IMG/VR virus record: IMGVR_UViG_3300031857_000018
Coordinates: 64,001-128,000 of that record
Direction: 5' to 3' (one strand)
From: a virus
Length of the DNA: 64,000 nucleotides
A program made the translations under genes and the position numbers. Below are positions 2,983-59,470 of the stretch, one piece after another; the first letter of the stretch is position 1; every line of letters begins with the position of its first letter. The notes below the pieces were generated by a model. That model did no database searches. It was not told the origin of the DNA and worked only from the letters and a program-made list of their open reading frames with translations.

Positions 2983-3519
2983 TTACCAATCGACTAATAC
3001 CATGTTTCCGTCCCACATCATAACGTTGTCAGAACGAAAATCTAAATCTAAATCGAATTCTGGAATTTGAAGTTTATCTATATCTGTTTTTAATGTGTTT
3101 AAAAAATTATCAATTATCGGATTAATACTTCCAGCATCAGGTAAAAAATCAAATATTGAAACTTCGCCTCCTTCATCCCGAGCAAATGAAGCAAAGTCTT
3201 GCATAAATAAATCAATTTCTTTTTTTAACCGAGTTGGTAGTTCCGAAGCATTTGCCATTATGTACATGTTTTTACCATCAACATAATATACCGGTATAAA
3301 TGTAGTAAACTCATTGTATCTATCAACGATAATACTTGCTACTTCATATTCATCACGTTCTTTAGTAATCTTAAAAACTTTATCTTCTCTATCAATTTCA
3401 TAAACGCGACCGTTATCACCAGCACCAATTAAACGGAATTGTTTTTGTTGTATTTTGTCTAAACATTTCTGAATATCTGAATTTGATATTTCTTTTAAAA
3501 GTTGTTTTAATCGTATCAT
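2983..3519 (-). CDS. Protein-kinase-like protein with MIRLKxLLxE N-terminal tag
   Basis: Gly loop IGAGDNGRVY, VFKIT..E, catalytic-loop-like DFRSDNVM and metal-binding-like VLVDW. Confidence 0.65.
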   Translation of the reverse strand: MIRLKQLLKEISNSDIQKCLDKIQQKQFRLIGAGDNGRVYEIDREDKVFKITKERDEYEVASIIVDRYNEFTTFIPVYYVDGKNMYIMANASELPTRLKKEIDLFMQDFASFARDEGGEVSIFDFLPDAGSINPIIDNFLNTLKTDIDKLQIPEFDLDLDFRSDNVMMWDGNMVLVDW

Positions 3520-3521
3520 GA

Positions 3522-5087
3522 TTACCTAGGAATTACATTGTTATTTAAGTCCATACGAACTAAGAAATTTAAATCTACATTTGCTGGTTTTTTAATTGGT
3601 TGTGCTAATTTTCCAATTGCTAACAATTGCCCTGCATCATCATACAATCCTATAGTTGTTATATACGGAGTAAATGTACTACTAGTAACAAATGAATGGT
3701 ATGTAATATCATTATCCGCCGTAAGAGTTGGATTCAATGACATATTAAAATCACCAGCATCTAATTTAACAATAACACCTAATTCATAAATTGTAACCGT
3801 GCTTTTATACTGAAAGGAAATAAAATCATTAACGGTATTATGAAATCGATAATCTGGAGTTGATACTATCGCGATTCCTTGTTTTGCAAAAATATTTCCT
3901 ACGTGATTAGTTTGAAGTAGTGTACCAGTTGTTAGATCCGGTGTGGCTAAAGATCCAATTTCTGCAAGAGATAGTGACTTATTAAATATTCTAACTTCAT
4001 CAATAACAGCTGTAAGATTTGATCCAGTAGTAGTATAACCTCCAATATACAATTTATCTGTGTTATCAATACGTGCTGATGCCGATAATGGTGATTGCGT
4101 ATTAATTAGTAATGGACTAGTAGCAGATGATTCTAACGCTCCATTTACATACAATTCAACCGAGCTGCCAGATTTTTGACAAATAAAGTGATTCCAGTTA
4201 GTTGTATTAAAAACAGATGATGTAATTTGTGTTTTAAATGTAGTGCTACCCGCTACAGAAAATACAATCTGATTGCTACCGCTCAATTCAATTCGGAACG
4301 GATATTGTGGAGTTAAACTACTAGATGCTTTTGTTGCAATTAATTGTGTTGCATTAGATGATCCGGAGAACCAAAAAGCAATTGCATAATCATGATCACG
4401 ATCATAAAATCCGTTTAAATCAGATTCAATATAACCAGCACCATCAAATTTAGCAGCTAATCCAACCGGTAAACTTGATATGTCGGCATCAGGTACTCCT
4501 GGTACATATGTTACTCCTGAACATACATATGGTACTCTGCTAGTATCGAAATATTCATTAAATCCTTCATACCACATCACCCCTGTAGCAAATGATGAAG
4601 TATCAATATCCACATTGTATAAATTGCCATATCGATCAGACTGAATGCCGCTACCAACATTATGTTTTATTTCAAATGATTTTGGTTTAACCGATTCTCC
4701 GTATTTTAATTGTGGTATAGAAAATATCGAAGCTGTTTGATACAAGTATTTATGTGTACGATTTAAATCTGTTGGACCTAGTGTGTTATATGGTTGATCT
4801 TTATATTTGTAAAATAACTGATTAACTGAATAATATGTTACAGTTTGCAAACTATCATCAATATTTTTTGCATCATTATATGTTAATTCGGTATCTAGAG
4901 CTGGTAATACATCTGAATATACTCCTTGTAATGGCAAACAACTCGAAGTAGCACTACCGGAGCCTATCACCCATTGCTTATAACTTTGGAACGGTGTTAA
5001 ACTAACATCAGAACTATTTATCTTTTTGAAAACAGTTGGATACACCCCTTGATATGTGTCAGTATTTGAAATTTTTGTTTCTGCCAT
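3522..5087 (-). CDS. Virion structural protein with LamG/concanavalin-like domain
   Basis: WNHF...LYVNG...IDEVRIFNKSL LamG pattern; C-terminal YITTIGLYDDAGQLLAIGKL is shared with the neighbouring structural gene. Confidence 0.7.
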   Translation of the reverse strand: MAETKISNTDTYQGVYPTVFKKINSSDVSLTPFQSYKQWVIGSGSATSSCLPLQGVYSDVLPALDTELTYNDAKNIDDSLQTVTYYSVNQLFYKYKDQPYNTLGPTDLNRTHKYLYQTASIFSIPQLKYGESVKPKSFEIKHNVGSGIQSDRYGNLYNVDIDTSSFATGVMWYEGFNEYFDTSRVPYVCSGVTYVPGVPDADISSLPVGLAAKFDGAGYIESDLNGFYDRDHDYAIAFWFSGSSNATQLIATKASSSLTPQYPFRIELSGSNQIVFSVAGSTTFKTQITSSVFNTTNWNHFICQKSGSSVELYVNGALESSATSPLLINTQSPLSASARIDNTDKLYIGGYTTTGSNLTAVIDEVRIFNKSLSLAEIGSLATPDLTTGTLLQTNHVGNIFAKQGIAIVSTPDYRFHNTVNDFISFQYKSTVTIYELGVIVKLDAGDFNMSLNPTLTADNDITYHSFVTSSTFTPYITTIGLYDDAGQLLAIGKLAQPIKKPANVDLNFLVRMDLNNNVIPR

Positions 5088-5149
5088 GCTAGTAAAAACC
5101 CTGCTATATTTAATAATAAATATAACAGGGCTTAAATCAGAGTGTTATT

Positions 5150-21267: not shown

Positions 21268-22272
21268 ATGAAAAACACATTAGCAGAAAATCTGCTTCGA
21301 TTTGGGGCAAAAAACTTAGATCAAACAACTATTGATAAACTAGCTAGTTTGTCAGAACAAGCCAAATCGCCTAGTGGTACAGTAACTATTCCATATAAGC
21401 AAACTTATAATTTAGCAGCTGGTAAATTTGATGCATCTAGCTATATCAACGAAATGCTTAAAGGCATAATGGGTGCTATTAATTCTAACCCAGAAGCTAA
21501 AAAAATGTTGGATAATAAATCAATCAAATTGATACGTGCTAGTTTTCAAGGTGGTGCAAGTAATTCATGGGGTGGAAAAGCTACTGGGTTTGACTTCGAA
21601 TTAAATAATACAAAAGCAACGCCAACAGAAACTGTATTATATCAAAAAAATAAAGATCTAGCAGCTCAACGCGCTGAAGCATGTAAAACTGCATTGCTAC
21701 CATTATTAGAAAAATCCGGAATAAAATTAGGAGCATCTCTACCAAATAACACGGTTATTTCTAGCGCAGTGTATAACACCGGTGGTAAACTAGATTTAGC
21801 TGGGCAAGTTATAACGGTTAGATTAACTTTTAGTTATTTATCAGTGACTGATATAATCACAATAACTGATATTAAACCTACATTTATTGCCCATGGGTCA
21901 TACTATACAAAAGATGGGAAATCATCAACAGGTAGAATAATTGACCCGACAAGTTTAAAAACTAGTACTAGTGCATTACCACCACAGTTAAAAGCAATGC
22001 CAAATCGGTTAGCAGCATTTGAAGTAAAATGGAATCCTGGAGTTTTAAAGGATCCACTAAAAATTCCATGGTATCGTTGGTTATTTGTATATGACGAACA
22101 AGGAAAGATTAAACAAATTATAGGCAAAGTTTATGATACAACATTAAATGCAAATTTACGTAGTATATTTAAAGATAATGATAATATCCCAACAAATGAT
22201 CCAACTTTAAAATATATGATGGATTTGGTATCTGCAAATTATTATAATACATACTTCAAACCATTTGTTTAA
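21268..22272 (+). CDS. Putative virion protein, LAEN..RFG.KNL leader, OmpA-C-like motif
   Basis: Late motif ATATTTATA upstream; GGAS...NKDLAAQRA resembles the OmpA-like N..L...RA motif. Confidence 0.55.
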   Translation: MKNTLAENLLRFGAKNLDQTTIDKLASLSEQAKSPSGTVTIPYKQTYNLAAGKFDASSYINEMLKGIMGAINSNPEAKKMLDNKSIKLIRASFQGGASNSWGGKATGFDFELNNTKATPTETVLYQKNKDLAAQRAEACKTALLPLLEKSGIKLGASLPNNTVISSAVYNTGGKLDLAGQVITVRLTFSYLSVTDIITITDIKPTFIAHGSYYTKDGKSSTGRIIDPTSLKTSTSALPPQLKAMPNRLAAFEVKWNPGVLKDPLKIPWYRWLFVYDEQGKIKQIIGKVYDTTLNANLRSIFKDNDNIPTNDPTLKYMMDLVSANYYNTYFKPFV

Positions 22273-23030: not shown

Positions 23031-23339
23031 ATGAAACATAGTTTACAAGAAAATATGCGTCGTTTTGGCACTAAAAATCTAAAAGAATCAGTCGATACTG
23101 CAGAATTAGATGCTAAATTAGAAGCAATTAATGATGATGATTTAGAAGGGTTTATCGAAGTAATGACTGCAATTGAAAATGCAGGTCCTATCGATGAATG
23201 GCTTAAAAAAGTTGCTAAAGCAATTCGTCGTAAATGGTACCGGATGACAAAACGATACAAATATAAATTGGATCAGCGTCGTTTATTAAATGCATCTCGT
23301 AGATTGTGGGATACAATGAAACATGATATAGGATTATAA
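23031..23339 (+). CDS. Putative virion protein, LQEN..RFG.KNL leader
   Basis: Upstream 39 nt nearly identical to that of 21268; shared N-terminal motif. Confidence 0.6.
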   Translation: MKHSLQENMRRFGTKNLKESVDTAELDAKLEAINDDDLEGFIEVMTAIENAGPIDEWLKKVAKAIRRKWYRMTKRYKYKLDQRRLLNASRRLWDTMKHDIGL

Positions 23340-23352: not shown

Positions 23353-24873
23353 ATGAAATTAGAAAAATTATTAGCAGAAAATATGCTTAGGTTTGGTGTT
23401 AAAAATTTAAATAATACCGATGTGCATCAAATCTTAACCATAATGGAACAAGCTGCAGCTGCAGGTACTGAAAGCTCCGCGGTTACATCGATGCCAGCAT
23501 ATAAACCAGTACTAGACTGGTGGAATAAAAAATCAAAAAATAATAGTTCAGCAAAAAAATATCTAGAATATTGGTCTGGCGGTGTTGCTAAAGAATCTAA
23601 AGGTATTAATGTTAATGCAACTAATACATTATTAAAACATTTACAAACTTTAAGTAAAAATAATGTTTATAACTTAGATCAAAATAAATTACAAGAGTTT
23701 ACCGACTATTTACAGACAAGTATTTCTGCTAATATTTATTTTGAACCTAGAAGTTTTGATCAGCGACCAGAAACTCGTGCTATACGCATATTAGCTATGT
23801 TAAAACCAGAATCAGATCCTACTAAAACATCATTAGCTACTAATGAAAAATCTGCTATTAGTGCATTCAATAAGGCAGATTTAAATAAAATTAAAGCATC
23901 TCTAGAGAAAACACAATTTGTTTATACTACAATTACCGAACAAGATAAAATTGCATTACTAAAATATTTTGAAGAAAAAGCTACACAAAAAGCCACAGTT
24001 CATAATAAAGCTAATGCTGATAACCCGTTAGGAAAATTAGTACAATGGAATATGGAAAAGGCTATTAAAGAAGCTTCAAGCATACGAATTGGACCTGGCA
24101 AAGGATCTATCGAACGAGAAGAAGCAGCCGATCCGACGCCACCAGAAATATATACATATACATTTTCATATCCAGATATAACCGCTACTAATCCTAAATT
24201 ACAAAATTTTTTCTTAGGAGATGATAATGTTGCAGTGTCTGCTGAGAATGAAACTGCATTTAAAGAAACATTAGAAACTTTACTAAATTCAATACCTGCA
24301 GATCAAAAAATAATTGAGGTATATATAAAAGCTGGATCGTCAACAAGTAAAGTTCCAACATCATATAAATCTGCTGGAAAATATACAACTGCTGCAAATG
24401 TAACATTAGTTGATGATCGCTTGACAGCAATACAAACATCTTTGTCAAACGTTGTTGATACAACAATACCAAAAGGAGAGTGGAAATTAATTGTCGACAC
24501 ACCAGAACGTAAACCGAATAACGGCCCTGAATGGACTGACGCTGATCGAGCTGCATATCCATTAGCTAAACGACGTAAAACACTAGAAAATGGAACTGCT
24601 AATCCACAATATGATCAAAAAATAGTTGATGCATATGAAGCAAAATATGGTAATTACAAAGGAAGTTACGGTCAAATATCTATTAAAACAACATCGACTA
24701 TAACTATACCAACTACTACCGCGCCGGCTATTAAAGTATCTGGAGAATGGTATGGATCTATATCATGGCCTTCCCCAGGAAGAGGTAATGGTAAACCAAA
24801 AACTATACCTGGAAAAAATAAAGGTGAAAAAACATGGACCGGTCAGGGAACGTTAGATTGTCCAATTTGGTAA
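23353..24873 (+). CDS. Putative virion protein, LLAEN..RFG.KNL leader, OmpA-C-like motif
   Basis: Shared N-terminus; IKAGSSTSKVPT...NVTLVDDR parallels the motif in 21268. Confidence 0.55.
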   Translation: MKLEKLLAENMLRFGVKNLNNTDVHQILTIMEQAAAAGTESSAVTSMPAYKPVLDWWNKKSKNNSSAKKYLEYWSGGVAKESKGINVNATNTLLKHLQTLSKNNVYNLDQNKLQEFTDYLQTSISANIYFEPRSFDQRPETRAIRILAMLKPESDPTKTSLATNEKSAISAFNKADLNKIKASLEKTQFVYTTITEQDKIALLKYFEEKATQKATVHNKANADNPLGKLVQWNMEKAIKEASSIRIGPGKGSIEREEAADPTPPEIYTYTFSYPDITATNPKLQNFFLGDDNVAVSAENETAFKETLETLLNSIPADQKIIEVYIKAGSSTSKVPTSYKSAGKYTTAANVTLVDDRLTAIQTSLSNVVDTTIPKGEWKLIVDTPERKPNNGPEWTDADRAAYPLAKRRKTLENGTANPQYDQKIVDAYEAKYGNYKGSYGQISIKTTSTITIPTTTAPAIKVSGEWYGSISWPSPGRGNGKPKTIPGKNKGEKTWTGQGTLDCPIW

Positions 24874-30544: not shown

Positions 30545-32314
30545 TTATAATTTTTTAACGCCAACGTGTATATGGTTATCATGATCTCCTTCTGGAGTAC
30601 GCCAACCAAATTGATATCGATATCCGTCTTTATTAACATTAAACCATTTCCCACCTTTGTATTCCGGATGACCAAACCAATTCATGATGTGTGCTAGTAG
30701 TTCATCACCTTTAGCTAAATTTTCTGGGGTTGGTTTACCGGTAAACAAATCTACTGCGTATTTATTTAAACTACCAACCCAATGGTCTGATGTGGCACCA
30801 GAGCTAGTTTTAACTGTGGTTCGCTTTTGGGATGTAACAATGTTTTTACCAACAAATTTATTTGCAACATTTGCAACTTCTAAAGCTTTTTGCATTGAGC
30901 CGGCCCAATCACCGTCAATGCCACCTGGGGTAACTTTACCGGAATCAACAGCACCTTGTGGTAATCCAAATGTAGATGCAGCGACGGTAGCTAGCGTACC
31001 AGTGCCTAATATCCCAGACATCACATTGGTTAAATTGGTCCAATCAGTCTCAGCATCTTTTTCATCTTTTGCATCTGCTGGCGCTGTTGTATCAAAAAAT
31101 TCCCTTGCATATTTTTTACGCTTATCGTATGTTGCTTGATTTGCTTTTGGACGTTCAAATTTCTTACAAAACATATCCGCAGCTTCTTCTGGATCTTCTG
31201 TGGTTTTCAATGTTTTATACAAAGAGTTATATGTTGGTTTTGATAATTCCCACAACAAGAAATCTAATTGGCCTTCAATTGAATATGGATCTTTACCATT
31301 TTGCTTAGAATACTGAATTAATCCATTTTTACCGGTCCAACGATCATTATGCCATTGAGCTAATCCAATCGATGTTCCATGGTCACCTTTAATCGTAGTA
31401 CTAAACGTCCCAGCTGATTCAACATATAAATTTGCAGTAACGCCTGCTGCGCCTGCATCGGATAATCCTTTTGATTTCAGATAATCTATAATCGTTTTTG
31501 CAGTGCCTCTTTGTTCGGTACCAACTGTAACTTTTGTATTGTCGACAGCTACTATCGGGGCAACTACAGGTGCAACTTTTAGTGCTTCAATTTTATCATC
31601 AACTTTACCTGCTCGAATTTCATCTTTAGTAGCAACAATACCACGTTTATTTAGTTTTTGCTGTATGTCATCAATATCATATTTTTTACCAGCAACAGTT
31701 ACTGTCTCAGCAGCCGAGTCTTCCGAATCAGTGGATCTGCTAGGTATAGTATCAGATAGTACGGAAATCGCAGCTTTAAAGAGTTTGGAGTTTGCTTCCT
31801 GATTTAAATCGTTTCCAGATTTTGAAAAATATTCTCGTTTATCAGTTAAAAAATTAATATCAATAATATCATCCGCATCAGCATTAGTTGTTAACCAATT
31901 ATTAATCGTGTTAATCTTTTTTTCAAATTTTTCGTCTACCTGATCTTTTTTATTGTCAATATAATCAAAACTAGGTATAGTGCATAAAATACATTTAACG
32001 TCTGCTTTTTGGGCAAATCTAATTATTAATCGAAAATTTTCAATTATGTTTAGCAATGTCTTGTTTTCATTGCGACCACTACAAAAAACAACAACAGCAT
32101 TATAACCGTTATTAATTTCATTGCGCACGGTGTTCATCATTGATTCTGAATCAGCACCTGGTTCAATAAATTTAGCGCCATCGATTGTTTGTAATCGAAA
32201 TAAACGATTCATGAAACTATATTTAGGTTTTGAGAATTGATCACCTACTAATAATACACGAGCCGTTTCTGGAGCCGGTTTGTCTTCGAATAATAAAGAT
32301 TTTAATCGTATCAT
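30545..32314 (-). CDS. Multidomain virion hydrolase: SGNH/GDSL-like + phage-tail-lysozyme-like + M15-like peptidase
   Basis: MIRLK tag; LLVGD..S, G.N; AAGV.ANL..ES, GLAQW...R, QLDFL..EL, FERP; SDH.....AVDL and HDNHIHV motifs. Confidence 0.72.
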   Translation of the reverse strand: MIRLKSLLFEDKPAPETARVLLVGDQFSKPKYSFMNRLFRLQTIDGAKFIEPGADSESMMNTVRNEINNGYNAVVVFCSGRNENKTLLNIIENFRLIIRFAQKADVKCILCTIPSFDYIDNKKDQVDEKFEKKINTINNWLTTNADADDIIDINFLTDKREYFSKSGNDLNQEANSKLFKAAISVLSDTIPSRSTDSEDSAAETVTVAGKKYDIDDIQQKLNKRGIVATKDEIRAGKVDDKIEALKVAPVVAPIVAVDNTKVTVGTEQRGTAKTIIDYLKSKGLSDAGAAGVTANLYVESAGTFSTTIKGDHGTSIGLAQWHNDRWTGKNGLIQYSKQNGKDPYSIEGQLDFLLWELSKPTYNSLYKTLKTTEDPEEAADMFCKKFERPKANQATYDKRKKYAREFFDTTAPADAKDEKDAETDWTNLTNVMSGILGTGTLATVAASTFGLPQGAVDSGKVTPGGIDGDWAGSMQKALEVANVANKFVGKNIVTSQKRTTVKTSSGATSDHWVGSLNKYAVDLFTGKPTPENLAKGDELLAHIMNWFGHPEYKGGKWFNVNKDGYRYQFGWRTPEGDHDNHIHVGVKKL

Positions 32315-32637: not shown

Positions 32638-33018
32638 TTATTTCTTGAATGTTTCTCTTAAAATATAATCATTGCCTTTAAGATTGCGAAGGATTCTTTG
32701 TTCTAAAGGAATTTCACGCATTTCTTGCAAACCTGATTTTTTAATTAAAGTAGATTCATTTTTTTCTTCTTTATCAGCAAAAGCTTTTTTCATTGATTCT
32801 TCTTCATCACCATCATTATCGGCATCGATATAATCTGGTCTTGCTGACTCATCTACATCTGATTCTTCTGATTCATCATTGAATGGCATATTCAATTCTG
32901 CTTCCTCACGCAGTTTGGCTTCGTATGCTGCGGTTGTATCTGCGAGGGTAGGAAGGGGCTTACCTTCTTCGCGTTCCCAGGCATACCCTTCGTTTAATAT
33001 TGATTTTAGTTTGATCAT
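32638..33018 (-). CDS. Acidic putative internal head protein (MIKLKSILNE tag; start reassigned to 33018)
   Basis: Late motif and AAAGGAA leader precede ATG 33018; DADNDGD Ca-binding-like loop. Confidence 0.65.
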   Translation of the reverse strand: MIKLKSILNEGYAWEREEGKPLPTLADTTAAYEAKLREEAELNMPFNDESEESDVDESARPDYIDADNDGDEEESMKKAFADKEEKNESTLIKKSGLQEMREIPLEQRILRNLKGNDYILRETFKK

Positions 33019-33097
33019 TTTAGTTCCTTTATTATAAATATGTAGTACGTTGTAAACCAATTACAAAATAAGTGCGCCCTTCCAGGGCCGCACAAAG

Positions 33098-33667
33098 TTA
33101 CATGCTTGGATCGGCCGGAGTATCAATGCCAGATGCATCGGGTCGGGCTTGACCCTGTTTGCGCACCAAGTACAATTTTGTTGATCCATGCTCTACACGG
33201 AAATCGCTCAGATCCGGATTGGTTTGTAGGAAGCGGGCATATATGCGTGATTTTTGTTGCTCCTTGTCCGGGTTGTTGTCTCCTCCAGTTATATCAATCA
33301 CATCTACCGCCGCATGCGTATCCGCAAAATCGCGAATTGCAAGCCCAATAGTTTTGAAAAACCGCAGCGTGTTCGTCTCACCAGCAGCTGCGCTACTACG
33401 AGCCGATGTAGTCCAATTGGCCCGGGCGTCTCGAACAGCAGCCATTTGACGATCTTGGGTAAAGAAAGCAAATTGCCATTCTCCCGTGTCCCCGAATTGA
33501 GAACGATAGTAGTGGTCGAACTTGATCAGGATGGGGTGGGCATCGGCTTGGATCTGCGTTTCGAAACTTTTGGCATCGCCCCAACGATCACGCCACGTGA
33601 ACTGCGTTGTGTATGGTTGAACCCCAGCTAACGAGATTTCCGCAAGTAAGTTGCTTAATCGTATCAT
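33098..33667 (-). CDS. Putative internal head protein (MIRLSNLLAE tag; start reassigned to 33667)
   Basis: Tag at ATG 33667; distant paralog of 34116..34577. Confidence 0.65.
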   Translation of the reverse strand: MIRLSNLLAEISLAGVQPYTTQFTWRDRWGDAKSFETQIQADAHPILIKFDHYYRSQFGDTGEWQFAFFTQDRQMAAVRDARANWTTSARSSAAAGETNTLRFFKTIGLAIRDFADTHAAVDVIDITGGDNNPDKEQQKSRIYARFLQTNPDLSDFRVEHGSTKLYLVRKQGQARPDASGIDTPADPSM

Positions 33668-33668: not shown

Positions 33669-34055
33669 TCATGATAATAGTTTTTTGCGTTGCATGTCCC
33701 GAATGCTTTGTTTGTGCCATTTAGTTGCAAGATCCATTCTACTAGCAACAAATTGAAGCAATGATTGACCTTTGCTGTTTTTTGGCGATTTCATCCACAA
33801 GTTGTTAACGCGTGTGTAAAGACCTTTTTTTCGTGACATTGCAATGAACGCTGCTTCCACAGCAGCTTCTTGCGTACCTAACAAGTTGTCAGTGAAACGC
33901 AGAATTATGCGCAGAATGTCCGCAGGATTAACTAGACCCTCAATAGTGCGATATGGAATTCCAAGATCGATTCCAGCACGTGGATCAGACCCAATAGCTC
34001 CAATGATTTTATCTAGCATTGATTGTTCTGTTAATATGTGTTTTAAACGTATCAT
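33669..34055 (-). CDS. Putative internal head protein (MIRLKHILTE tag; start reassigned to 34055)
   Basis: Late motif and AAAGGAAACA leader precede ATG 34055. Confidence 0.65.
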   Translation of the reverse strand: MIRLKHILTEQSMLDKIIGAIGSDPRAGIDLGIPYRTIEGLVNPADILRIILRFTDNLLGTQEAAVEAAFIAMSRKKGLYTRVNNLWMKSPKNSKGQSLLQFVASRMDLATKWHKQSIRDMQRKKLLS

Positions 34056-34115: not shown

Positions 34116-34577
34116 CTATTTGTCTTTTATTCCCGTCCAATCATAACTAGTACTCGACCCACCATCACGTTCCAATTCCATGTACGATGCAGTTTCCTGT
34201 GATATAGAATACCCACGCAAAGCGCGCAGCACATAAGCCCGGTATAAACGCATTCTGCGTGGATCAGATTTGGCTACTCCGAACACCACTGTTTCAGGAC
34301 GCCACTTCTCCACTGCCTTGCGGGCAATCTCAACTATGGTGCTCATTACACGGTACACATCCGATTCCGCGGTCTCCACATCATGATCCCATCCGCCTTG
34401 TGGGTTCTTCGTAGCAAACGCAATTTCCATGACCTCATCAGATCCATATGGAAATGACACTTGATACATGGTACCACGCTCTGTTTCGAAATAGGCTTCT
34501 CCGTTGTACATGTTGTATGGGTATGGTGTCGCCGTGCCTTCCCCTATCTCTGCTAGTATGTGTTTAAGACGTATCAT
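34116..34577 (-). CDS. Putative internal head protein (MIRLKHILAE tag)
   Basis: Tag present; RVMSTIVEI...R.RLY parallels RFFKTIGLA...SRIY in 33098. Confidence 0.65.
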   Translation of the reverse strand: MIRLKHILAEIGEGTATPYPYNMYNGEAYFETERGTMYQVSFPYGSDEVMEIAFATKNPQGGWDHDVETAESDVYRVMSTIVEIARKAVEKWRPETVVFGVAKSDPRRMRLYRAYVLRALRGYSISQETASYMELERDGGSSTSYDWTGIKDK

Positions 34578-43849: not shown

Positions 43850-43929
43850 ATTCTCCCTTTTTAATTTATATAAAGATAAGGTTTATTTCCGTGCGTGTCA
43901 ACCTTTTTGGTAACTTTGTTTGAACTTTT

Positions 43930-44172: not shown

Positions 44173-44246
44173 ATTTCTCTCTTTTTTTTAATTTTAATAA
44201 AGATAAGGAAAAGATCAACGCGAGTCAACCTTTTCCCAAAGTTTTT

Positions 44247-44375: not shown

Positions 44376-44473
44376 ATCTCTTATTTTTTAATTTATATAA
44401 AGATAAGAATAAAAACCATGCGTGTCAACCTTTTTGCAAGAAAAGTTTAAAAAAAGTTTCTGAGGAATATTAT

Positions 44474-44841: not shown

Positions 44842-44883
44842 TTTTATATTATATGAAATCTAAATCTAGATTCCAACCTCGAT

Positions 44884-45780: not shown

Positions 45781-45845
45781 CAAGGGGATGCTGAGGAAGC
45801 TGTAGTGCTAGACACTGGGCTCACACTCTGACAGGCTACTACTAA

Positions 45846-46088
45846 TTACTGCATATAGCTTGTGATCACTTCTCCTACCATGTATGCTGCTACTCCTATC
45901 ATGCCTATCACGCATATAGCTATATAGCCTAAGAATCCTGCTAACATGTACAGTTCCCAGCTAGTTGGTTCACGTCGCGTGTCTGGATCTATTAAGGGCA
46001 TCATTACTCTGCCTACCAGGTACGTGATGCTTAATATTAAAGCTATCGTTGTTATTCCTAGTATTGTCTTCATTATTATCATTTGCAT
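45846..46088 (-). CDS. Small two-TM membrane protein
   Basis: Two hydrophobic helices. Confidence 0.55.
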   Translation of the reverse strand: MQMIIMKTILGITTIALILSITYLVGRVMMPLIDPDTRREPTSWELYMLAGFLGYIAICVIGMIGVAAYMVGEVITSYMQ

Positions 46089-46156
46089 TATTTTTCGTTA
46101 GAAGCTTATCCGTAACCGTACTGCTTTACTAATTAGTTTGACAACCGGTTATCATT

Positions 46157-47245
46157 TTATTCATAGTTCCTGATTGCCGTTACCTTCGGGAAGCGTGGCT
46201 TTCCATCCGGTGTGATTTGAAAATACTTAACCGTTGCTTGCTGACCAACCAACGTGTCTCGCTCTGCCCACAATTCTTTGAGATACTCCCAACCGCCATT
46301 AACCGATGCTGTGAAGCGATCTCCGATGGCTGTTTCAAATACTAAGGCACCTACCATTCCTGACAGGTTGCCGTTGCCTTCTTCATATCCGACAATAGTA
46401 TACTCTTCGTCTGTGAATGATTTGTGTTTCATCAGTGACTTGGATCTTTTGTTTTCATAAGGTGCATCTAACCGTACCATTTGTCCTTCATATCCTGCAG
46501 ACATATACTCATTGTATAATTCCATTAACTCAGTTTCAGATTCAACAAAGTCTGTAAACACAACCACACAACACGCCGGCAATGACATTTTATTCAATGC
46601 TCCGTTCCTAACGGAAAATGGTGTATGGTGTGATGGTAGATCATATACATGATATTGGATAACCGCGGCGCTGTCAATAAGATCCTGAGCCGTTGGTTTT
46701 GTCTTTTTAACTAGGGACACAATGGCATTAAAATCATTTGCATACTTATCCGCATACAACTCTCCGTCTAGGATCAACTCCGGATCGGCTTCAAACAATG
46801 GCTTTAGGCCTTCGAAGATGTGTGGTGCTGAAATGATAGGTTTACCTGCTCTGGTCCACATACCATCGGCACGAACAATGCAACGAATGCCATCCAGCTT
46901 AGGTTGTGAATACACAGGGTATTGTACTTTGTCTGCGAAGTCTTCCCATTTGTGGGCAAGCATTGGCTTGAACATTGTGCCGCTATCTACTGCTGCAGCA
47001 TCGGCAAAGTAGCCACGCTCGGTGCGCTTCTTCCATTCTGCTTTGGCTTCTGTTAAGGCTTGTTCCTCCGGTGAGGACTCATTCACTTTGCCAATGTTCT
47101 TGGCTTGGCAGAAGGTCCATTCGGTTGTGGTGATTGCTCCGTCAACATATCCGGAGTGAGTGCGGTAAGCATCGCCCATTACTTCGATGGTGTGCTCGAG
47201 TAATTTACCTGTGGTTGCTCTTTTGTACAAGGTCTGTAATTTCAT
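46157..47245 (-). CDS. lig: ATP-dependent DNA ligase
   Basis: PMLA, motif I QPKLDGIRC, LDGELY, YHVYD, YEGQMVR, KRSKSLMK.K and PRFP. Confidence 0.93.
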   Translation of the reverse strand: MKLQTLYKRATTGKLLEHTIEVMGDAYRTHSGYVDGAITTTEWTFCQAKNIGKVNESSPEEQALTEAKAEWKKRTERGYFADAAAVDSGTMFKPMLAHKWEDFADKVQYPVYSQPKLDGIRCIVRADGMWTRAGKPIISAPHIFEGLKPLFEADPELILDGELYADKYANDFNAIVSLVKKTKPTAQDLIDSAAVIQYHVYDLPSHHTPFSVRNGALNKMSLPACCVVVFTDFVESETELMELYNEYMSAGYEGQMVRLDAPYENKRSKSLMKHKSFTDEEYTIVGYEEGNGNLSGMVGALVFETAIGDRFTASVNGGWEYLKELWAERDTLVGQQATVKYFQITPDGKPRFPKVTAIRNYE

Positions 47246-47308
47246 GTCTCTTATTTTTATACTTTAAATATAAGAATTATTTTTCATATATCCTAGTATT
47301 ATTCTAAT

Positions 47309-47962
47309 TTAAATCCACATAGCATGTTCTGTATATAACCGTAGTTGATGTTGATTAATGTATGGAGCTAATACGTGTTGCGATGTCGGCGTAAGCCTAA
47401 AAGTCCATGTTCTCCATACACGTTCATAATGAAAATGAATATCAACAGGAATGTGGGTTCGTTGTGGTTTATATTCTAATTCAACCGGATAGTATGTATC
47501 AGGTGTTGCATTACTAGGAAACAAAGTAAACCATCGATACGTGCACGGAACTCCTGCAGTAATACCCATCAAACCTTTTGATATCTTCAAGCAAATTAAT
47601 CGTTTCTGATCGAACGATTCCATTGGTATATCAATATTCCTATCCGCAATATTTAATCGACCATGTTTTTCAAACTGCGTAACATCTAATACCATTGAAT
47701 CTCGCGCCGGCTTGGATACACTTAAAAAATGTGAAATGATTCGATGGTTTGGTAATATGTCATCGAATAAAATCTGTTGCACCTTAGGGTACGTCGACGT
47801 TTGCATCGATTGTTCAACCTTTGAATACAGATCCGGATAGAATGCAGAAATAAACCGTTCAGCACCCTCGAACACAACTGGTTCTAACATCTCAATTTCT
47901 TTATGCTTTGCATCAAATGTCGCCGGATCATATACCGGTACTCTGAATTTCATTGAACTCAT
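47309..47962 (-). CDS. Hypothetical protein
   Basis: 217-aa ORF in operon. Confidence 0.55.
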   Translation of the reverse strand: MSSMKFRVPVYDPATFDAKHKEIEMLEPVVFEGAERFISAFYPDLYSKVEQSMQTSTYPKVQQILFDDILPNHRIISHFLSVSKPARDSMVLDVTQFEKHGRLNIADRNIDIPMESFDQKRLICLKISKGLMGITAGVPCTYRWFTLFPSNATPDTYYPVELEYKPQRTHIPVDIHFHYERVWRTWTFRLTPTSQHVLAPYINQHQLRLYTEHAMWI

Positions 47963-48157
47963 CTATTTGCTATTAAACCATTTTTTATAAACCTTGTTGT
48001 CTTTAATTGCAGGTGGTCGGTGACGGAGGTTAGGATCCGCCTTCATTATGCGATTGTATGCATCTTGCATATTCAGCGCCGCTTTGTTCTGATATGGCAC
48101 ATGTTCTTGCCGCTCATTATCAAAATTCTTATTTGGCTGAATTGCACTCATACTCAA
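47963..48157 (-). CDS. Hypothetical protein
   Basis: 64-aa ORF abutting the next gene. Confidence 0.45.
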   Translation of the reverse strand: MSMSAIQPNKNFDNERQEHVPYQNKAALNMQDAYNRIMKADPNLRHRPPAIKDNKVYKKWFNSK

Positions 48158-48608
48158 CTCCTAATGCATCGATCAATGCTTTAATTGCTTCAAATTCAGT
48201 GAAGTGCAGTGATATCATTTTGCTATCTGAAATTGCAATATCCCATCCTTCGCCGTTAGTCCATTCAGTAACCTCGACATAGTCATGTTTCTTGTGCCAT
48301 GCATCATGCAGATTCACAAAGGCTGATGCTCGTTTACTTAGTTCAATTTTCTTGCTATCGATCCATTCTTCGGCAGCTTCTAATCCTTCTTCTACCTTAC
48401 GTTGTTTCTCAATATGCGCTCGGATATCACCAATAGTATGAATACCTTGTGCTGAGTTATCAGTTGGATACACTTCAGTAGCATCGGGTAATAGTTCTGC
48501 TATCAAATCCGTAAACCACATTTCGGCTCCCAATACACCGCCTCCTACTCTGCGCGCGATGTCGCGGGACTCGCCATCTTTTAGTAATACTGCAAATGTT
48601 GTGCTCAT
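48129..48608 (-). CDS. Hypothetical protein (start reassigned to 48608)
   Basis: EVTEWTNGEGWDI C-terminal domain. Confidence 0.6.
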   Translation of the reverse strand: MSTTFAVLLKDGESRDIARRVGGGVLGAEMWFTDLIAELLPDATEVYPTDNSAQGIHTIGDIRAHIEKQRKVEEGLEAAEEWIDSKKIELSKRASAFVNLHDAWHKKHDYVEVTEWTNGEGWDIAISDSKMISLHFTEFEAIKALIDALGVEYECNSAK

Positions 48609-48612
48609 AGTC

Positions 48613-48879
48613 TTATTTTTTATCTTCAAATATATCATCGACGCCTAACAGGTTGTTGTAGGTTTCTCTCCAATTGGTAATTACTGGTTGCAACACAAAA
48701 AAAGAAACGGCACCTGCAGGAGCCCAAACCCACCACAAATGCAATGGAGCTACTACTACGATGATAGTTGCTAATAGTCCGGTTGCTAATGTCATCACCG
48801 TAAACAAAGTTACTAGGAATCTTTTAAACATTGTCTTCATTGTTTTCATTTTCTTGTTGTTTTTGTTGTTCATATTCAT
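48613..48879 (-). CDS. Two-TM membrane protein (holin candidate; start uncertain)
   Basis: Two TM helices near the transglycosylase gene. Confidence 0.45.
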   Translation of the reverse strand: MNMNNKNNKKMKTMKTMFKRFLVTLFTVMTLATGLLATIIVVVAPLHLWWVWAPAGAVSFFVLQPVITNWRETYNNLLGVDDIFEDKK

Positions 48880-49096
48880 AACGACTAACGATCAATTCTC
48901 TTTGCATTCTGCCTCGATTGCTTTCTCTGGCTTGCACCTGCTGATAGGCTTCTTCTAATTCTTCAGTGGTCATGTATGCAATCTCTCTTTGAGTTGGTGT
49001 CATGAAATCACGTGGATCAATAGACTGCTGTAATTGTTTTAACAATGCATCAAACTGCTCTTGTTCTGACATTTCTGTGTTTTGTTCTTCAGACAT
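48824..49096 (-). CDS. Hypothetical Q/E-rich protein
   Basis: TTGGAA-N17-TATAAT promoter upstream. Confidence 0.5.
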   Translation of the reverse strand: MSEEQNTEMSEQEQFDALLKQLQQSIDPRDFMTPTQREIAYMTTEELEEAYQQVQARESNRGRMQRELIVSRYEYEQQKQQENENNEDNV

Positions 49097-49126
49097 ATTT
49101 TTATTTTATTATATGAAATTATTAGT

Positions 49127-49660
49127 TTATTTCCAATTGATTCGGTGTGCATATACACGATTAGCATATCCGTTAACACACGGTCTTCCTGTGTTATAAC
49201 AGCCAAACACTGTCTTCCAATCTCCGTATTTGTTATACAACTTGCGAAGCACTTTCATTGATGTCATAACATTGTATTCAATATCATTGCGTAATCTTTC
49301 ACGCGAAACATTGTCATGATTATTGCTACGAGCAGTTGGTAACATGATTTGCATAGGTCCTAAGGCTCCTGCTGATGATCCTTGTGCGTGATTATAGTTC
49401 CAATGAAAAGGACCATTGTAGCCTGTTTCTGCTGCAGCAATGCCATATGCATAACGCTTTGGAATGTTAAACGAATCTGCATATCGTTCAATATGAAAAT
49501 ACATTTGCATACACGGAGGATCCTGTGTGGTAACTGCTTTATATTCTCGAATTGTTTCTGTTTGAATTGGTACCGACTCGGTGTTATCAAATGAAACGAT
49601 AGCAGCCGCACCTCCGGCTACTATCATTAGAATCTTAAATCTAATCATTTGACTTAGCAT
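49127..49660 (-). CDS. Lytic transglycosylase (SLT), N-terminal signal/anchor; endolysin candidate
   Basis: AETGY, SSAGALGPMQIM..TA, YNTG and YANRV motifs. Confidence 0.85.
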   Translation of the reverse strand: MLSQMIRFKILMIVAGGAAAIVSFDNTESVPIQTETIREYKAVTTQDPPCMQMYFHIERYADSFNIPKRYAYGIAAAETGYNGPFHWNYNHAQGSSAGALGPMQIMLPTARSNNHDNVSRERLRNDIEYNVMTSMKVLRKLYNKYGDWKTVFGCYNTGRPCVNGYANRVYAHRINWK

Positions 49661-49964
49661 TTTGATAAATACGATTCGTATACATACGGAAGATGGTCAT
49701 ACCAATCTCATCCGAGTATACAACATACTTACCAGTTTTTCTTTCAATCAGCATAAGCTCATTTGCTTCATTAACTGCAATTGAAATTTCATCCGGTGCA
49801 AATGCTTTTGCATATGGATTCGATACAAGTTCTTTCTTTGGAGGAAAGTTTTGCGTGTATCGCCCAATGGAAAATCCTAGAGCCAATGCGCCAACAATTG
49901 TTGCATAACTTAATACTCGTTTCGCAACTGTTACGAACTGTTCTTTACTTACTGGCATTTTCAT
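49641..49964 (-). CDS. Membrane-anchored protein upstream of SLT (start reassigned to 49964)
   Basis: Single TM helix; overlaps the SLT start. Confidence 0.55.
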   Translation of the reverse strand: MKMPVSKEQFVTVAKRVLSYATIVGALALGFSIGRYTQNFPPKKELVSNPYAKAFAPDEISIAVNEANELMLIERKTGKYVVYSDEIGMTIFRMYTNRIYQNAKSND

Positions 49965-49981
49965 ATATATTTGTTTTTGGA

Positions 49982-50260
49982 TTACTTGTTTGTGTTGCAA
50001 CTAGCTGCAAACTGTTCAATTGTCTTAACTCCACAGGCACATGTGCGAGTGATGCTATCAAATTGACAATGCGGGCGTGCTTTGAGTTTGTTCTGAATCC
50101 ATACATGTTGCTCAGATTCAATTGGAGAAACTCGGCTGTCTGGATACGTTGTACGAGCTATTCTCAACCTTCTAGGTTCTTCTCGTTTGGGTTTACATAA
50201 CATTCCTAAGTGTCGAAGCATCAATAGGAAACTTGTGGTAAGATTTCTTTTTCGTGTCAT
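49982..50260 (-). CDS. Hypothetical protein
   Basis: Promoter TTGGAT-N17-TATATT and AAAGAG leader. Confidence 0.5.
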   Translation of the reverse strand: MTRKRNLTTSFLLMLRHLGMLCKPKREEPRRLRIARTTYPDSRVSPIESEQHVWIQNKLKARPHCQFDSITRTCACGVKTIEQFAASCNTNK

Positions 50261-50548
50261 AACTCTTTCTCTTTTTTATAATATAAGAAATATTTAGCAA
50301 TTATCCAACCGATATCGGTAGAGTTTTTAATCTAAATAGATGTCATGAAACACAATGCAATATGCATTTAGTGTAGCTGCTTGATCAAACAACATGGTTC
50401 TCTTAAACGGATCTGTAGCTACTTTATATTGTGCTACAATAATATTAGCGTACGCTTGTGCTAACTTTCTAATAACTCTCTTTTTCATAATTCTTTTTCT
50501 ATAATATAAGAAATAAAAAGAAAAGACCCAACCTGCCCAGGCGATTAA

Positions 50549-50887
50549 TTAATCTTTAAGTAAATCTTTCTTTGTGTTCTTTTTCACTTCAAAATACGTA
50601 TCAATTAGTTTGTCAATACGTTTGTCAGTGTATGCTTTGCTTTCGCGATGCATTTCATCCATCACACGATGCATACTTTCATCATTGCGATTAATTTGGT
50701 TTCTCAGAGTTTGTTCCACCATGTTGATGTCTCTGAAGATTTCGCGTTCGGTATCTTCCTGGCGCTTTTTTAATGGTAGCAATTCTTTTGCTAACGCTGT
50801 TACCTTAAGCACACCTATAACGATTGCAACTACAATTGCAAACACAATCATCGTAAGTATACCTATAGCAAATGATCCTATACTCAT
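50549..50887 (-). CDS. Membrane-anchored coiled-coil protein (start reassigned to 50887)
   Basis: N-terminal TM helix + coiled coil. Confidence 0.6.
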   Translation of the reverse strand: MSIGSFAIGILTMIVFAIVVAIVIGVLKVTALAKELLPLKKRQEDTEREIFRDINMVEQTLRNQINRNDESMHRVMDEMHRESKAYTDKRIDKLIDTYFEVKKNTKKDLLKD

Positions 50888-50929
50888 AATAGTTCTCCTT
50901 GGTTGATGCCCGGGCAGGTGGATCATTAA

Positions 50930-51331
50930 TTATTTTGTAATTTTAAATAATTCGTAGTTGCTGTTCTTAGTTTCAAATTTGATATAATCTTCACGTTGCT
51001 CAACAATTCGAGTTACGCCTGTTGTCTGCCAAGTAAAGAACTGATTGAACGGAGACATTAGCAACGATCTACCTTCTGCAGGTTCGTCGTGTCTTGCTTT
51101 GTAGTAACCGGTTTCATTCCATTCGAGCCATGTAATCCTTGCACTGGTACACGTTAAACCATCACGTTCTCGTACTAGCTTCCAATTCTTTTCGCCATCG
51201 ACTACTCCTTGATCTACGGCAGCTTTAATCAAGTCATCTTCAACCACAACCGGTATCTTTATTTGATTTAATTTACTCTTCGGCTGTGGCATATCGCCAT
51301 CCGACAGTTGTGGGTCGTTCCAATCTTTCAT
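50930..51331 (-). CDS. Hypothetical protein
   Basis: WQTT.V..I......F.T.NS.Y.L conserved-looking phage pattern. Confidence 0.6.
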   Translation of the reverse strand: MKDWNDPQLSDGDMPQPKSKLNQIKIPVVVEDDLIKAAVDQGVVDGEKNWKLVRERDGLTCTSARITWLEWNETGYYKARHDEPAEGRSLLMSPFNQFFTWQTTGVTRIVEQREDYIKFETKNSNYELFKITK

Positions 51332-51332
51332 A

Positions 51333-51557
51333 TTAATCTAATTTTAATCCAGCTTCTGATTTTAATTCATGCAATGTTTCTCGGATCTTTTCCACTGCTT
51401 CATAAGCCTCACCGGTTAGTTTATCATTGTATTTTAACTCGCTTCGTAAGTGTTGGTCCAAGTCCCACACTATCATTTTCCATTTCCATCCATTGATGGC
51501 TGACTCCATTTCTTCACGATCTTCGTCGAAGTCAAATTCTAAAGTTACCTTTGCCAT
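51333..51557 (-). CDS. Hypothetical protein
   Basis: 74-aa coupled ORF. Confidence 0.55.
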   Translation of the reverse strand: MAKVTLEFDFDEDREEMESAINGWKWKMIVWDLDQHLRSELKYNDKLTGEAYEAVEKIRETLHELKSEAGLKLD

Positions 51558-52270
51558 ATTATTTCATTTGTTATGTTATCCCATTCAAAGTGCCATGGTT
51601 CCTGTGCATAATTGTATCGTTCATTCAACACTGCTGCATTGAAGTAGTGAGTGTGACCATCGAAGTAGTGTCCGTATCCTGAATGAATATGCCCACATAC
51701 ATGTATCTTGGGACGTATAGTTTCAATACGCTTTGCCAATAACTCACAACCTAAATGCTGACCTCTTCGGCCTTCTACATCATCCAAGAAACCCCAAGCA
51801 GGCCCATGTGTCACTAGTATATCAATGTTGTCAGGAATATCATTCCACTTTTGTTCCAACTCCCAACCATCGCGTGGCAAGTTGAATGCCCAATCATAAA
51901 ACCAAGGTTGCCATGGCGAACCATATATGCGAACATTTTCTTCTGGCATATCGCCATTTGCACCATCATTGTATACTCCTAACCAATCATCTTCTAGGTA
52001 CTCGATAGTCTTGTAACCTGTTAGTATGCCTTTTGCCTCTTCAGGCGCATCTTGCATCCATCGGTCATGATTGCCGGCAATGAACACTTTGGTGTCATAG
52101 CTGTTAAGTTGATCCAACCACTTGAAGAACATCATCGCTTCAGTTGGACTATATCCTGATGTCATGAAGTCTCCGGCATGGATCAGAATATCGCCACCTG
52201 GAAGATCTTTACTTAACAAGTCATGCTTTGCGTGGGTATCTGATATTAATGTTATTTTATATTTTGCCAT
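51545..52270 (-). CDS. Metallophosphoesterase
   Basis: SDTH, HAGD, AGNHD, THGP and CGHIH motifs. Confidence 0.9.
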   Translation of the reverse strand: MAKYKITLISDTHAKHDLLSKDLPGGDILIHAGDFMTSGYSPTEAMMFFKWLDQLNSYDTKVFIAGNHDRWMQDAPEEAKGILTGYKTIEYLEDDWLGVYNDGANGDMPEENVRIYGSPWQPWFYDWAFNLPRDGWELEQKWNDIPDNIDILVTHGPAWGFLDDVEGRRGQHLGCELLAKRIETIRPKIHVCGHIHSGYGHYFDGHTHYFNAAVLNERYNYAQEPWHFEWDNITNEIIWQR

Positions 52271-55200: not shown

Positions 55201-55201
55201 A

Positions 55202-57817: not shown

Positions 57818-58146
57818 TATTCCACTGTTTTCTCTACGTATGTGCAAGTCTCACCTGCATCAAATCCTTTTTCTAATAGCAAGGGCAGGGAAGCTGGCTT
57901 GCACCAAGCATACACCAAGTACCCTTTGAATCTTTGCTGCACATACTCCCAACGGGCGTCCCACAGCATTCGAAAGATTCCTTTGCGACGATGGTCTTCA
58001 TGTACCCAAGCATCTAGGAACTTGATGCGTTGTGTTTCTTCTCGTTCCATGTAGATGTGTCCTACAATGTCTCCGTTTACCATGGCGATCCAGGTTTCAA
58101 GTCGTTGAGCATTGCTTTTAAGATGTACTATTTTAATGTCTTCCAT
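57817..58146 (-). CDS. GNAT acetyltransferase
   Basis: WVHEDHRRKGIF (motif A), SLPLLLEKGF. Confidence 0.85.
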   Translation of the reverse strand: MEDIKIVHLKSNAQRLETWIAMVNGDIVGHIYMEREETQRIKFLDAWVHEDHRRKGIFRMLWDARWEYVQQRFKGYLVYAWCKPASLPLLLEKGFDAGETCTYVEKTVE

Positions 58147-58149
58147 AAG

Positions 58150-58974
58150 TTAATGTATTCGTTTTAATATGTCACTTAATCGGCTATACATTTCTACTGC
58201 TATCGGTACTGACATCAGTGCAATAAGAAAATTGTTTACATACGAGTATACTGTAATCACACTACCAATTGTAACATGTTGGGTTGTAAGTACCAACACT
58301 ATGATCGACGCAAACAAAAATATGTTTTTAATCATCATGATGAGAAACCAATTCTTTCCTTGCAGAGTTGATTGGAATATCTCTAGTTGGCGCCGGCGAT
58401 TAAAAAACAGCACTGAGGCATCATATCCAGCTTGTATAGCGTCTCCTTTGCGTTCATAATGTGTGTTCCTCAGTTTGATTGCCTGCTTTATTTTGCTGTA
58501 TAGTAAGGTTACAGCAGCAAGTATCATCACGAATGCAATACTAACCAACACACCAACCTGCCAATTTTCTGAGTAAATAAACCCGATGGATCCTACGATT
58601 GTAACAATGGTTGCGATATAGTAATGCACATATCCTTCCAATACATTAACAATATCATGGGCCATATCTGTTCTAGCAATTTTGGTTGATGCATCATGAT
58701 GCGGTTGCCGCAGAAATCGAAACACGATGCTGTTGTATATTCGAGTGTACACTTTGGTATCATACACCATTCGTTTATAATTAAAAAATGCAGATAAGAA
58801 ATATGAGGTTCCTAACAGCACCAACCAATGCCATGTGCCACTCATCAGGCCGTCAATGCTTTTACCAAGCAGAAATGGTGTTGCTAGATTAGACAGCTCG
58901 GTGACGAGCATGAACAAGTAAATGAATGATAGCTGGCGTCGATGCTGTTTGAATATCTCATAAATTTTATTCAT
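58150..58974 (-). CDS. ABC-transporter six-TM-domain protein (no ATPase domain)
   Basis: P.LLG.SIDGL, RMVYDTKVYTRIY; six hydrophobic helices. Confidence 0.7.
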   Translation of the reverse strand: MNKIYEIFKQHRRQLSFIYLFMLVTELSNLATPFLLGKSIDGLMSGTWHWLVLLGTSYFLSAFFNYKRMVYDTKVYTRIYNSIVFRFLRQPHHDASTKIARTDMAHDIVNVLEGYVHYYIATIVTIVGSIGFIYSENWQVGVLVSIAFVMILAAVTLLYSKIKQAIKLRNTHYERKGDAIQAGYDASVLFFNRRRQLEIFQSTLQGKNWFLIMMIKNIFLFASIIVLVLTTQHVTIGSVITVYSYVNNFLIALMSVPIAVEMYSRLSDILKRIH

Positions 58975-59470
58975 AGTTTAATTGATTAACGTCACTTTGA
59001 TCGTCGGGTATGCCGGTGAGTGAATATCTATCTTTATTTAGATCCGCAGCTAGTTTAGTCTTAATAAACTGCTCCTCGCCTACCGGATCATATATGTTCC
59101 CTTGCGAATCTCGTACCCAGTAATGCGGAATAAACTTCCATTGATCAGCATATTCGCTAGTCTCAATCCACTGTTTTCTATCGTTAGCATCATTCCAATT
59201 CCCACCATCCGAAATAAACTCGCGTTTCATTTCTTCAGTGAAGTCAGCTTTATCGTATACGACTGAATCCGCCTTAAAATATCCTTCTACGCGATTCAAT
59301 TCTTGCGCCCCATGTTTTGTCAAAAACTGCATAAAACTCAACGCAGCAGGACCACAATTATCTCTTTTGCAGAAGTACTTCAGTTCCTTAGGACTTACGG
59401 TTTGTTTCCACTGAGCAATAAGACTCTCTGGCGATGCTGTCTCTTTCAATAAATCTTTTAATCGTATCAT
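58967..59470 (-). CDS. Putative internal head protein (MIRLKDLLKE tag), possible Cys-His-Asp hydrolase
   Basis: Tag and late motif; DNCG...HYWV.....IYDP...QF. Confidence 0.6.
   Translation of the reverse strand: MIRLKDLLKETASPESLIAQWKQTVSPKELKYFCKRDNCGPAALSFMQFLTKHGAQELNRVEGYFKADSVVYDKADFTEEMKREFISDGGNWNDANDRKQWIETSEYADQWKFIPHYWVRDSQGNIYDPVGEEQFIKTKLAADLNKDRYSLTGIPDDQSDVNQLNYE

Follow-up and report, generated by a model that had tools for sequence, protein, structure and literature searches.

A conserved N-terminal leader, MIRLKxLLxE, as the probable capsid targeting sequence of uncultured distant relatives of phage T4

INTRODUCTION

Bacteriophage T4 delivers ready-made proteins together with its DNA, and the textbook route for this delivery is the capsid targeting sequence (CTS), an N-terminal leader. 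The protease gp21 of T4 works within the prohead. To our knowledge, the T4 CTS has been documented for only a few proteins, all of them in phages closely related to T4. It is carried by the internal proteins IPI, IPII and IPIII and by Alt, and is removed by the gp21 prohead protease (Mullaney and Black 1996, reviewed in PMC9026906, PMC3012670 and PMC5694885). Amber-suppressor work on IPIII revealed that residues 1-10 are sufficient for packaging, with positions 4 and 7 acting in targeting and positions 8 and 10 in processing (PMC9026906). Reviews have suggested that the CTS is perhaps a general route by which T4-like phages load varied proteins. Here we describe a peptide, MIRLKxLLxE (the tag), that opens a series of unrelated genes in a 64,000-nucleotide stretch of viral DNA (the window), which comprises bases 64001-128000 of the 169,328-bp IMG/VR record IMGVR_UViG_3300031857_000018 (GC content 36.7%, CheckV completeness 100%).

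A different kind of leader is known from the giant phages phiKZ, 201phi2-1 and SPN3US, whose ejection proteins have propeptides cut by prohead proteases at (S/A/G)-x-E (PMC5694885). Additional cleavage sites within these propeptides may aid removal of the fragments (PMC5694885).

RESULTS

A shared N-terminal tag on unrelated proteins

Seven minus-strand open reading frames (ORFs) of the window, named here by the position of their start, begin with exactly the decapeptides quoted in the initial annotation of the sequence (Table 1). Their consensus is M-I-[RK]-L-[KS]-x-[LI]-L-x-E. The shared DNA that had also been reported is there: ATGATACG opens six of the seven ORFs, and 33018 opens with ATGATCAA. 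The true start of 34055 is the Met of MIRLK, because the in-frame ATG upstream of it sits 5′ of the late motif described below.

A search of the full proteome with the strict pattern added an eighth ORF (MLKLKHLLNE, genome position 17781). Eight such N-termini compare with 0.0004 expected from the composition of the proteome (Poisson P about 4e-32), and the core of the tag without its Met has no other occurrence in the six frames of the genome. Two looser variants, MISMKTLITE (genome 134129, 248 aa) and MKLRNLLFE (genome 136075, 108 aa), which are also present on orthologues in relatives, bring the group, termed class 1, to ten. All ten leaders have Leu or Ile at position 8 and Glu at position 10, and every one is strictly N-terminal.

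Beyond the tag the proteins diverge into unrelated bodies, as first described. A relationship had been suspected between 33667 and 34577; the likeness found by BLASTP is confined to residues 1-19. A mixed alignment of the tagged proteins was set aside and was not folded, since it joined unrelated bodies via their shared ends.

Such conservation might reside in the nucleic acid, as a translation-initiation element, a RegA-like repressor site or a recombination cassette, the peptide being a by-product. The common ATGATACG would fit this explanation, and so would the choice of codon 2: 14 of the 17 tags of the window and of one relative (G001) use ATA for Ile-2, compared with 26% of Ile codons genome-wide. 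However, codons 3, 4, 7 and 8 vary synonymously (CGA/CGT/CGG; TTA/CTT/CTA/TTG), Glu is kept as both GAA and GAG, the replacements are conservative in the protein (R/K, L/I), and comparison of the regions upstream of the class-1 genes revealed no likeness among them. As the sole explanation, conservation at the RNA or DNA level is therefore very unlikely; it could coexist with a peptide signal. In the same set of tags the AGA codon is never used for Arg-3; an example of the ATA codon is found at 3514-3516.

The tag follows the T4 rules and is accompanied by a gp21-type protease

The leaders in the T4 record are MKTYQEFIAE (IPII and IPIII), MAKINELLRE (gp24), MELITELFDE (Alt) and MLKEQLIAE (gp22). 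In each of them position 4 is hydrophobic, as are positions 7 and 8, and the Glu is the tenth residue, except in gp22, where it is the ninth. The tag keeps Leu-4, Leu-7 or Ile-7, Leu-8 and Glu-10, and positions 6 and 9 vary freely. Nearly all of 120 homologues of the 178-aa protein (ORF 3519), gathered by similarity of the body, begin with M-I-[RS]-L-K-x-L-L-x-E, and Glu-10 is invariant in a 51-sequence alignment of this family. The initial annotation had called the signal analogous to the CTS and distinct from it in sequence. The analogy stands; the distinctness holds only in part, as the architecture of the T4 CTS is kept position for position.

The head module of the genome is T4-like, with terminase, portal, protease, scaffold and capsid protein. 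Locating the prohead protease gene had been proposed initially as a check; it was found at genome 48568-49194 and encodes a Peptidase_S77 of the gp21 family, the domain match spanning 48655-49143 (E 4.6e-33, 110.9 bits, cut-off 27). A Gp23-type major capsid protein is also encoded (E 9.8e-75). Ranked by this protein, Flavobacterium phage immuto and Microcystis phage Mel-JY01 are the closest isolates, both with 57% identity, and Rhodothermus phage RM378 is farther away. Judged by these genes, the genome is that of an uncultured distant T4 relative. The predicted maturation site of the capsid protein aligns with the gp23 site of T4 (FLTE/A in T4, LVKE/A here, LLDE/A in one relative and IVSE/A in immuto, the slash marking the cut), and for this reason the protease of the lineage very probably keeps the T4 specificity.

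Tagged genes lie in units headed by a late-type motif

Of all words in the regions ahead of genes, the octamer ATATTTAT shows the strongest enrichment (18-fold), and it is also present upstream of portal, tail and other virion genes. All 15 tagged genes, including those of the second class described below, lie in units headed by this motif, in agreement with the initial annotation, and in eight of the 15 it stands directly upstream of the gene, compared with 34 of the 210 other genes (P 0.002). No early or replication protein in the genome is tagged; such proteins carrying the tag equally often had been named at the outset as a finding that would speak against a capsid signal.

The unit of 32314 begins with GATATTTATTAAT at 32559-32566, just after a strong terminator-like hairpin (12 bp, 32578-32606). 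An unlisted short ORF (window 32459-32554, minus strand), which begins with MNRLFAFIIGCAIMVIGG, lies between the late motif and the genes for the 48-aa and 589-aa proteins; its product is hydrophobic and is probably a membrane peptide. An upstream motif of another class precedes small ORFs in an early-looking region (window about 40000-52000 and elsewhere), with examples upstream of 40997, 42739 and 47245. It consists of TTCTTATATT(T)A and then, close to the start codon, AAAGAG(AG), and it differs from the late-type ATATTTAT.

Distribution of the tag

IMG/VR was scanned with a back-translated tag pattern that fixes ATGATACG and hence undercounts K3 and other variants. At least 125 matches were found in at least 117 stretches. 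Among the matches listed, 122 of 125 open an ORF of at least 100 aa or run off the locus, almost always a few codons after an upstream stop. After removal of the first 12 residues the tagged proteins fall into at least 35 body clusters. In one body family, tagged members (MIRLVDLLSE-DLRRW...) and untagged ones (MNE-DLNKW...) both occur, and the boundary between the two forms is the predicted cut. As a negative control, the DNA pattern of the tag was run over 596 Gb of prokaryote genomes. It gave 38 matches, 32 of them opening ORFs shorter than 100 aa; one of the 38 was real: it belongs to a tagged family and lies on a short, mis-binned contig of evident phage origin.

Peptidase_S77 is encoded in eight of ten long tag-bearing contigs, the remaining two being 40% and 60% complete. 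A complete 159.6-kb relative has 11 tags and four class-2 leaders. In another relative, of 279 kb, the protease is more divergent, and at least seven MI[KR]L tags are present. The protease gene has tagged neighbours in several relatives: the gene of a MIKLKSLLIE protein directly precedes it and that of a MIRLK-tagged protein directly follows it, in the position of the T4 core genes 67/68. The homologue of the protease-flanking protein in the present genome begins with MKTPNLKYILE. No tag was found in the 484-kb record LR756508, and RM378 gave one chance-like match.

A common N-terminal leader on otherwise unrelated proteins is a hallmark, too, of systems in which the leader is recognized by a modifying enzyme and does not serve in sorting. 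Around the 117 tagged loci, however, neither an enzyme family nor any other gene family accompanies the tags: the commonest neighbours are only syntenic neighbours of the 178-aa family. In the genome no SPASM domain was found, the one radical-SAM match is sub-threshold and lies at a distance of about 9 kb from the closest tag, and the tagged genes are scattered. A modifying-enzyme leader thus appears extremely improbable.

Among cultured phages, Mel-JY01 (PP395634.1 60276-62762, locus L307) encodes the paralogues MIKLKSLLQE, MIKLKSLLKE and MIKLMSLVTE, with tagged genes at 60276, 60923 and 62056, and a decayed fourth copy, all annotated as hypothetical; TATATTTATATATA precedes the first of them. 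A literature search yielded no mention of these motifs in phages, nor of phage Mel-JY01.

A second class of leaders

The initial annotation had pointed to a second leader on 21268, 23031 and 23353. This class is real and larger than described, with two further members at genome 16514 and 17364. All five proteins open with the tag, in full or in shortened form, which ends in h-x-E (h, hydrophobic) and is followed by N-M-x-R-F-G-x-K-N-L. An IMG/VR scan for the NM-x-RFG-x-KNL module alone gave at least 145 matches in at least 69 body clusters. In every match listed the module lies 5-11 residues from the start Met, and 44 of these matches have a full ten-residue leader, such as MIRLKNILAE or MIKLKNILAE. 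In 84% of the matches listed the module is followed by x-E, which was absent from the search pattern and creates a second L-x-E site.

By its sequence, class 2 is the tag, or a shortened form of it, with an added module. We read it as a 17-23-residue propeptide with two predicted protease sites, comparable in length to the 19-residue propeptide of T4 IPI, and it is probably cut twice or at the distal site. Shuffling of the leaders as cassettes, also suggested initially, left a sign at the DNA level only in the class-2 pair 21268/23031, whose upstream regions are near-identical; elsewhere it is not visible.

Tagged proteins

The tagged genes of the window are listed in Table 1. Pfam and PHROGs gave nothing for most of the cargo proteins. 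The cluster of tagged genes had no megablast match in 50,697 phage records, and the 178-aa and 153-aa proteins had no tblastn match in the same records, hence no cultured carrier in that collection.

Table 1. Tagged genes and copies of the late-type motif in the window (motif copies at the end)
Feature	Position	Strand	Remarks
178-aa protein, MIRLKQLLKE	2983..3519	-	tag codons 3490-3519; kinase-like body ending at the DFG-equivalent Asp
589-aa protein, MIRLKSLLFE	30545..32314	-	GDS(L)-like N-terminal part (sequence reading only); Phage_lysozyme2 at residues 271-408
126-aa protein, MIKLKSILNE	32638..33018	-	acidic; matches no known family
189-aa protein, MIRLSNLLAE	33098..33667	-	C-terminus is the companion motif DASGIDTPADPSM (33098-33145)
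128-aa protein, MIRLKHILTE	33669..34055	-	sub-threshold DRAT match
153-aa protein, MIRLKHILAE	34116..34577	-	DUF6934 (PF22028, E 1.8e-7); decayed C-terminal companion motif
167-aa Cys/His protein, MIRLKDLLKE	58967..59470	-	weak papain/transglutaminase-like structural resemblance
334-aa class-2 protein	21268..22272	+	short leader MKNTLAE, then NLLRFGAKNL
102-aa class-2 protein	23031..23339	+	leader MKHSLQE, then NMRRFGTKNL, then K-E (second L-x-E site)
506-aa class-2 protein	23353..24873	+	full-length 10-residue leader, MKLEKLLAE-type, then NMLRFGVKNL
ATATTTAT ahead of 33018	33034..33041	-	
Further ATATTTAT-type copies	5116-5123, 32559-32566, 34070-34077, 34899-34906, 59475-59482	-	
Further ATATTTAT copies	21235-21242, 22998-23005	+	

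The family of the 178-aa protein is the commonest cargo of the clade, with 734 clusters in the protein database. Its Pfam profile search gave no match. In the alignment of 51 sequences the Gly-loop residues G34, D35 and N36 are invariant, as are K50, E57, D160, N165 and D177. The AlphaFold model has a pLDDT of 79.7 overall and of 43 for residues 1-10, so that the tag lies outside the fold. In the structure search the best matches were APH(2'') aminoglycoside phosphotransferases and protein kinases (Foldseek probability 0.97-1.0), and residues 15-178 superpose on kinases and phosphotransferases over the stretch that begins with the N-lobe and reaches the DFG position, with modest scores (Z at most 7.8). 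The model points to a kinase-like protein with a minimal fold, not to a proven kinase. This agrees with the initial call of a kinase-like cargo, and the wall hydrolase named alongside it was also found: the lysozyme domain of the 589-aa protein matches PF18013 with an E-value of 2.8e-33. For the third call, a Cys-His-Asp protein, only a weak papain/transglutaminase-like lead was obtained, as the 167-aa protein reaches a TM-score of 0.47-0.50 to Transglut_core clusters. Directly downstream of its gene (window 58150-58974, minus strand) is the gene of a 274-aa membrane protein (ABC_membrane_3, E 1.2e-19).

The 128-aa protein was considered as an ADP-ribosyltransferase. The DRAT match (23.2 bits) is below the cut-off of 25, there are two homologues of near length, the Atlas gave nothing, and the assignment is not claimed. 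A tagged relative of this protein in locus L098 has 272 aa. The 248-aa MISMKTLITE protein (genome 133383-134129, minus strand, outside the window) contains HEIEH, an HExxH motif, and is conserved with the same tag variant in G001; it may be a metallopeptidase-like cargo.

A C-terminal companion motif and internal copies of the tag

A second shared element, K-Y-D-A-S-G-I-D-T-P-G-D-P-x-M, always ends exactly at the stop codon and contains no L-x-E. It has 35 IMG/VR matches in nine body clusters, which include ParB-like DGHHR proteins, and at least 28 of the matching proteins are also tagged at the N-terminus. Besides the minus-strand copy in ORF 33667 and the decayed one in ORF 34577, it is present in loci L013, L027, L061, L072, L074, L107 and L308-L329.

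Copies of the tag also occur between domains. In one relative (L015:3154-4977, minus strand) a single ORF consists of an HD domain, MIRLKKILKE and a ligase-like domain. A homologous 831-aa protein of the present genome (genome 56493-58988, ahead of the window) has MKTGGILTE/GGAAGHM at the same domain junction, and homologous proteins of 530-590 aa in five loci have an internal NIKLKDL-x-x-E near residue 300. These junction copies suggest polyproteins that would be cut by the prohead protease.

DISCUSSION

We consider it likely that a widespread clade of uncultured phages, distantly related to T4, uses MIRLKxLLxE as its capsid targeting sequence. The initial annotation had read the tag as a T4-type signal for capsid targeting and cleavage, and this reading is supported by the S77 protease, the maturation site of the capsid protein, the conservation of the T4 CTS positions, the many unrelated bodies and the late-type motif. 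The tag is portable, it is N-terminal, it is linked to S77, its genes have a late-type context, and it matches the rules of the T4 CTS.

Binding of the tagged proteins to the core, their cleavage, packaging and injection are steps that we infer. The tagged proteins would be made late, alongside the parts of the prohead. The 10-residue leader, hydrophobic at positions 4, 7 and 8 and basic at positions 3 and 5, would dock the cargo on the scaffolding core during prohead assembly. The gp21-type Peptidase_S77 would then cut after Glu-10, at a hydrophobic-hydrophobic-x-Glu site, and free the mature proteins in the head, from which they would exit with the DNA at the next infection. The proposed cargo would consist of about ten class-1 proteins (the minimal kinase-like enzyme, the wall hydrolase with its lysozyme domain, the HExxH protein, the Cys/His protein, DUF6934 proteins and several of no known family) and of the five class-2 proteins.

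Several observations weigh against this interpretation. The position frequencies obtained from IMG/VR are partly biased, several positions having been fixed by the search pattern. Phage immuto, though the closest isolate by its capsid protein, has just two weak tag candidates. The preference for ATA at codon 2 hints at an added constraint at the nucleotide level. Ile-2, Arg-3 and Lys-5 are conserved in addition to the positions required in T4, and to a degree that no part of the T4 CTS reaches; the docking partner may therefore differ. Finally, the lysozyme domain of the 589-aa cargo is common to tail lysins and tape-measure proteins of other phages, where it is usually part of the tail or baseplate. 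Because Ile-2, Arg-3 and Lys-5 exceed the T4 rules and codon 2 is biased to ATA, a further constraint on the tag is likely, imposed either by translation initiation or by the docking partner.

The tail-associated lysin domain and the three extra conserved residues would also fit an assembly or localization signal of another type, one that sends proteins not to the prohead core but elsewhere, perhaps to the tail, the baseplate, the inner membrane or some other structure made late, whether or not it is then removed. We think this improbable, as the nearly invariant Glu-10 with Leu or Ile at position 8 has the form of a gp21 site, the maturation site of the capsid protein has the same form, and in relatives tagged proteins adjoin the protease gene in the head module, T4 gp21 acting inside the prohead.

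A capsid targeting sequence of this kind would be the T4 device in another sequence, heading 10-15 proteins per genome and more than 100 unrelated families in a clade that is abundant and uncultured. The injected proteins, which are the likeliest place for new anti-defence and host-takeover factors, could then be listed by searching for a short pattern, and the rules of the T4 CTS (positions 4, 7, 8 and 10) would be ancient and general. The tag might also give T4-type heads another, independent address under which foreign proteins could be loaded, and the cultured carrier Mel-JY01 offers an experimental system for it. More speculatively, and with a good deal of doubt, the plain leader, the longer two-site leader (at least 69 body families) and the C-terminal tail KYDASGIDTPGDPxM (nine body families) could form a combinatorial sorting code that sets the place of the cargo, its copy number or the order of ejection. 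If such a code existed, the injected proteome of the whole uncultured clade, including the conserved minimal kinase-like protein, could be read from sequence by a simple rule.

Read as a capsid targeting sequence, the tag represents a mechanism already known from T4, here in a new version, and the class-2 module and the C-terminal motif set it apart; we know of no T4 counterpart of either. The tag shares with the T4 CTS its length of 10 residues, its N-terminal place on unrelated proteins, the hydrophobic character of positions 4, 7 and 8, and Glu-10; the protease family is the same, the upstream motif makes the genes candidates for late expression, and some of the tagged genes are clustered as in the IP loci of T4. 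In contrast to these shared features, the tag is identical to MKTYQEFIAE only at Met-1 and Glu-10, so that the likeness is one of pattern. The number of cargo proteins is 10-15 per genome here and about four in T4, and the cargo consists mostly of enzymes, whereas that of T4 consists of small basic proteins. Among the T4 head proteins, gp24 has a leader with the L-L-x-E ending, and in relatives tagged proteins flank the protease gene in the manner of the T4 core genes 67/68. Unlike the T4 head proteins, the capsid and scaffold proteins of this genome lack the tag. The propeptides of the giant phages are mostly longer than 100 residues, have no shared portable tag, and are cut by another protease (gp245 in SPN3US) with another P3 residue. 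In both systems, many proteins packaged in the head and ejected from it are, or in our case would be, cut C-terminal to Glu, and the extra sites of the giant-phage propeptides parallel the two L-x-E sites of the class-2 leaders.

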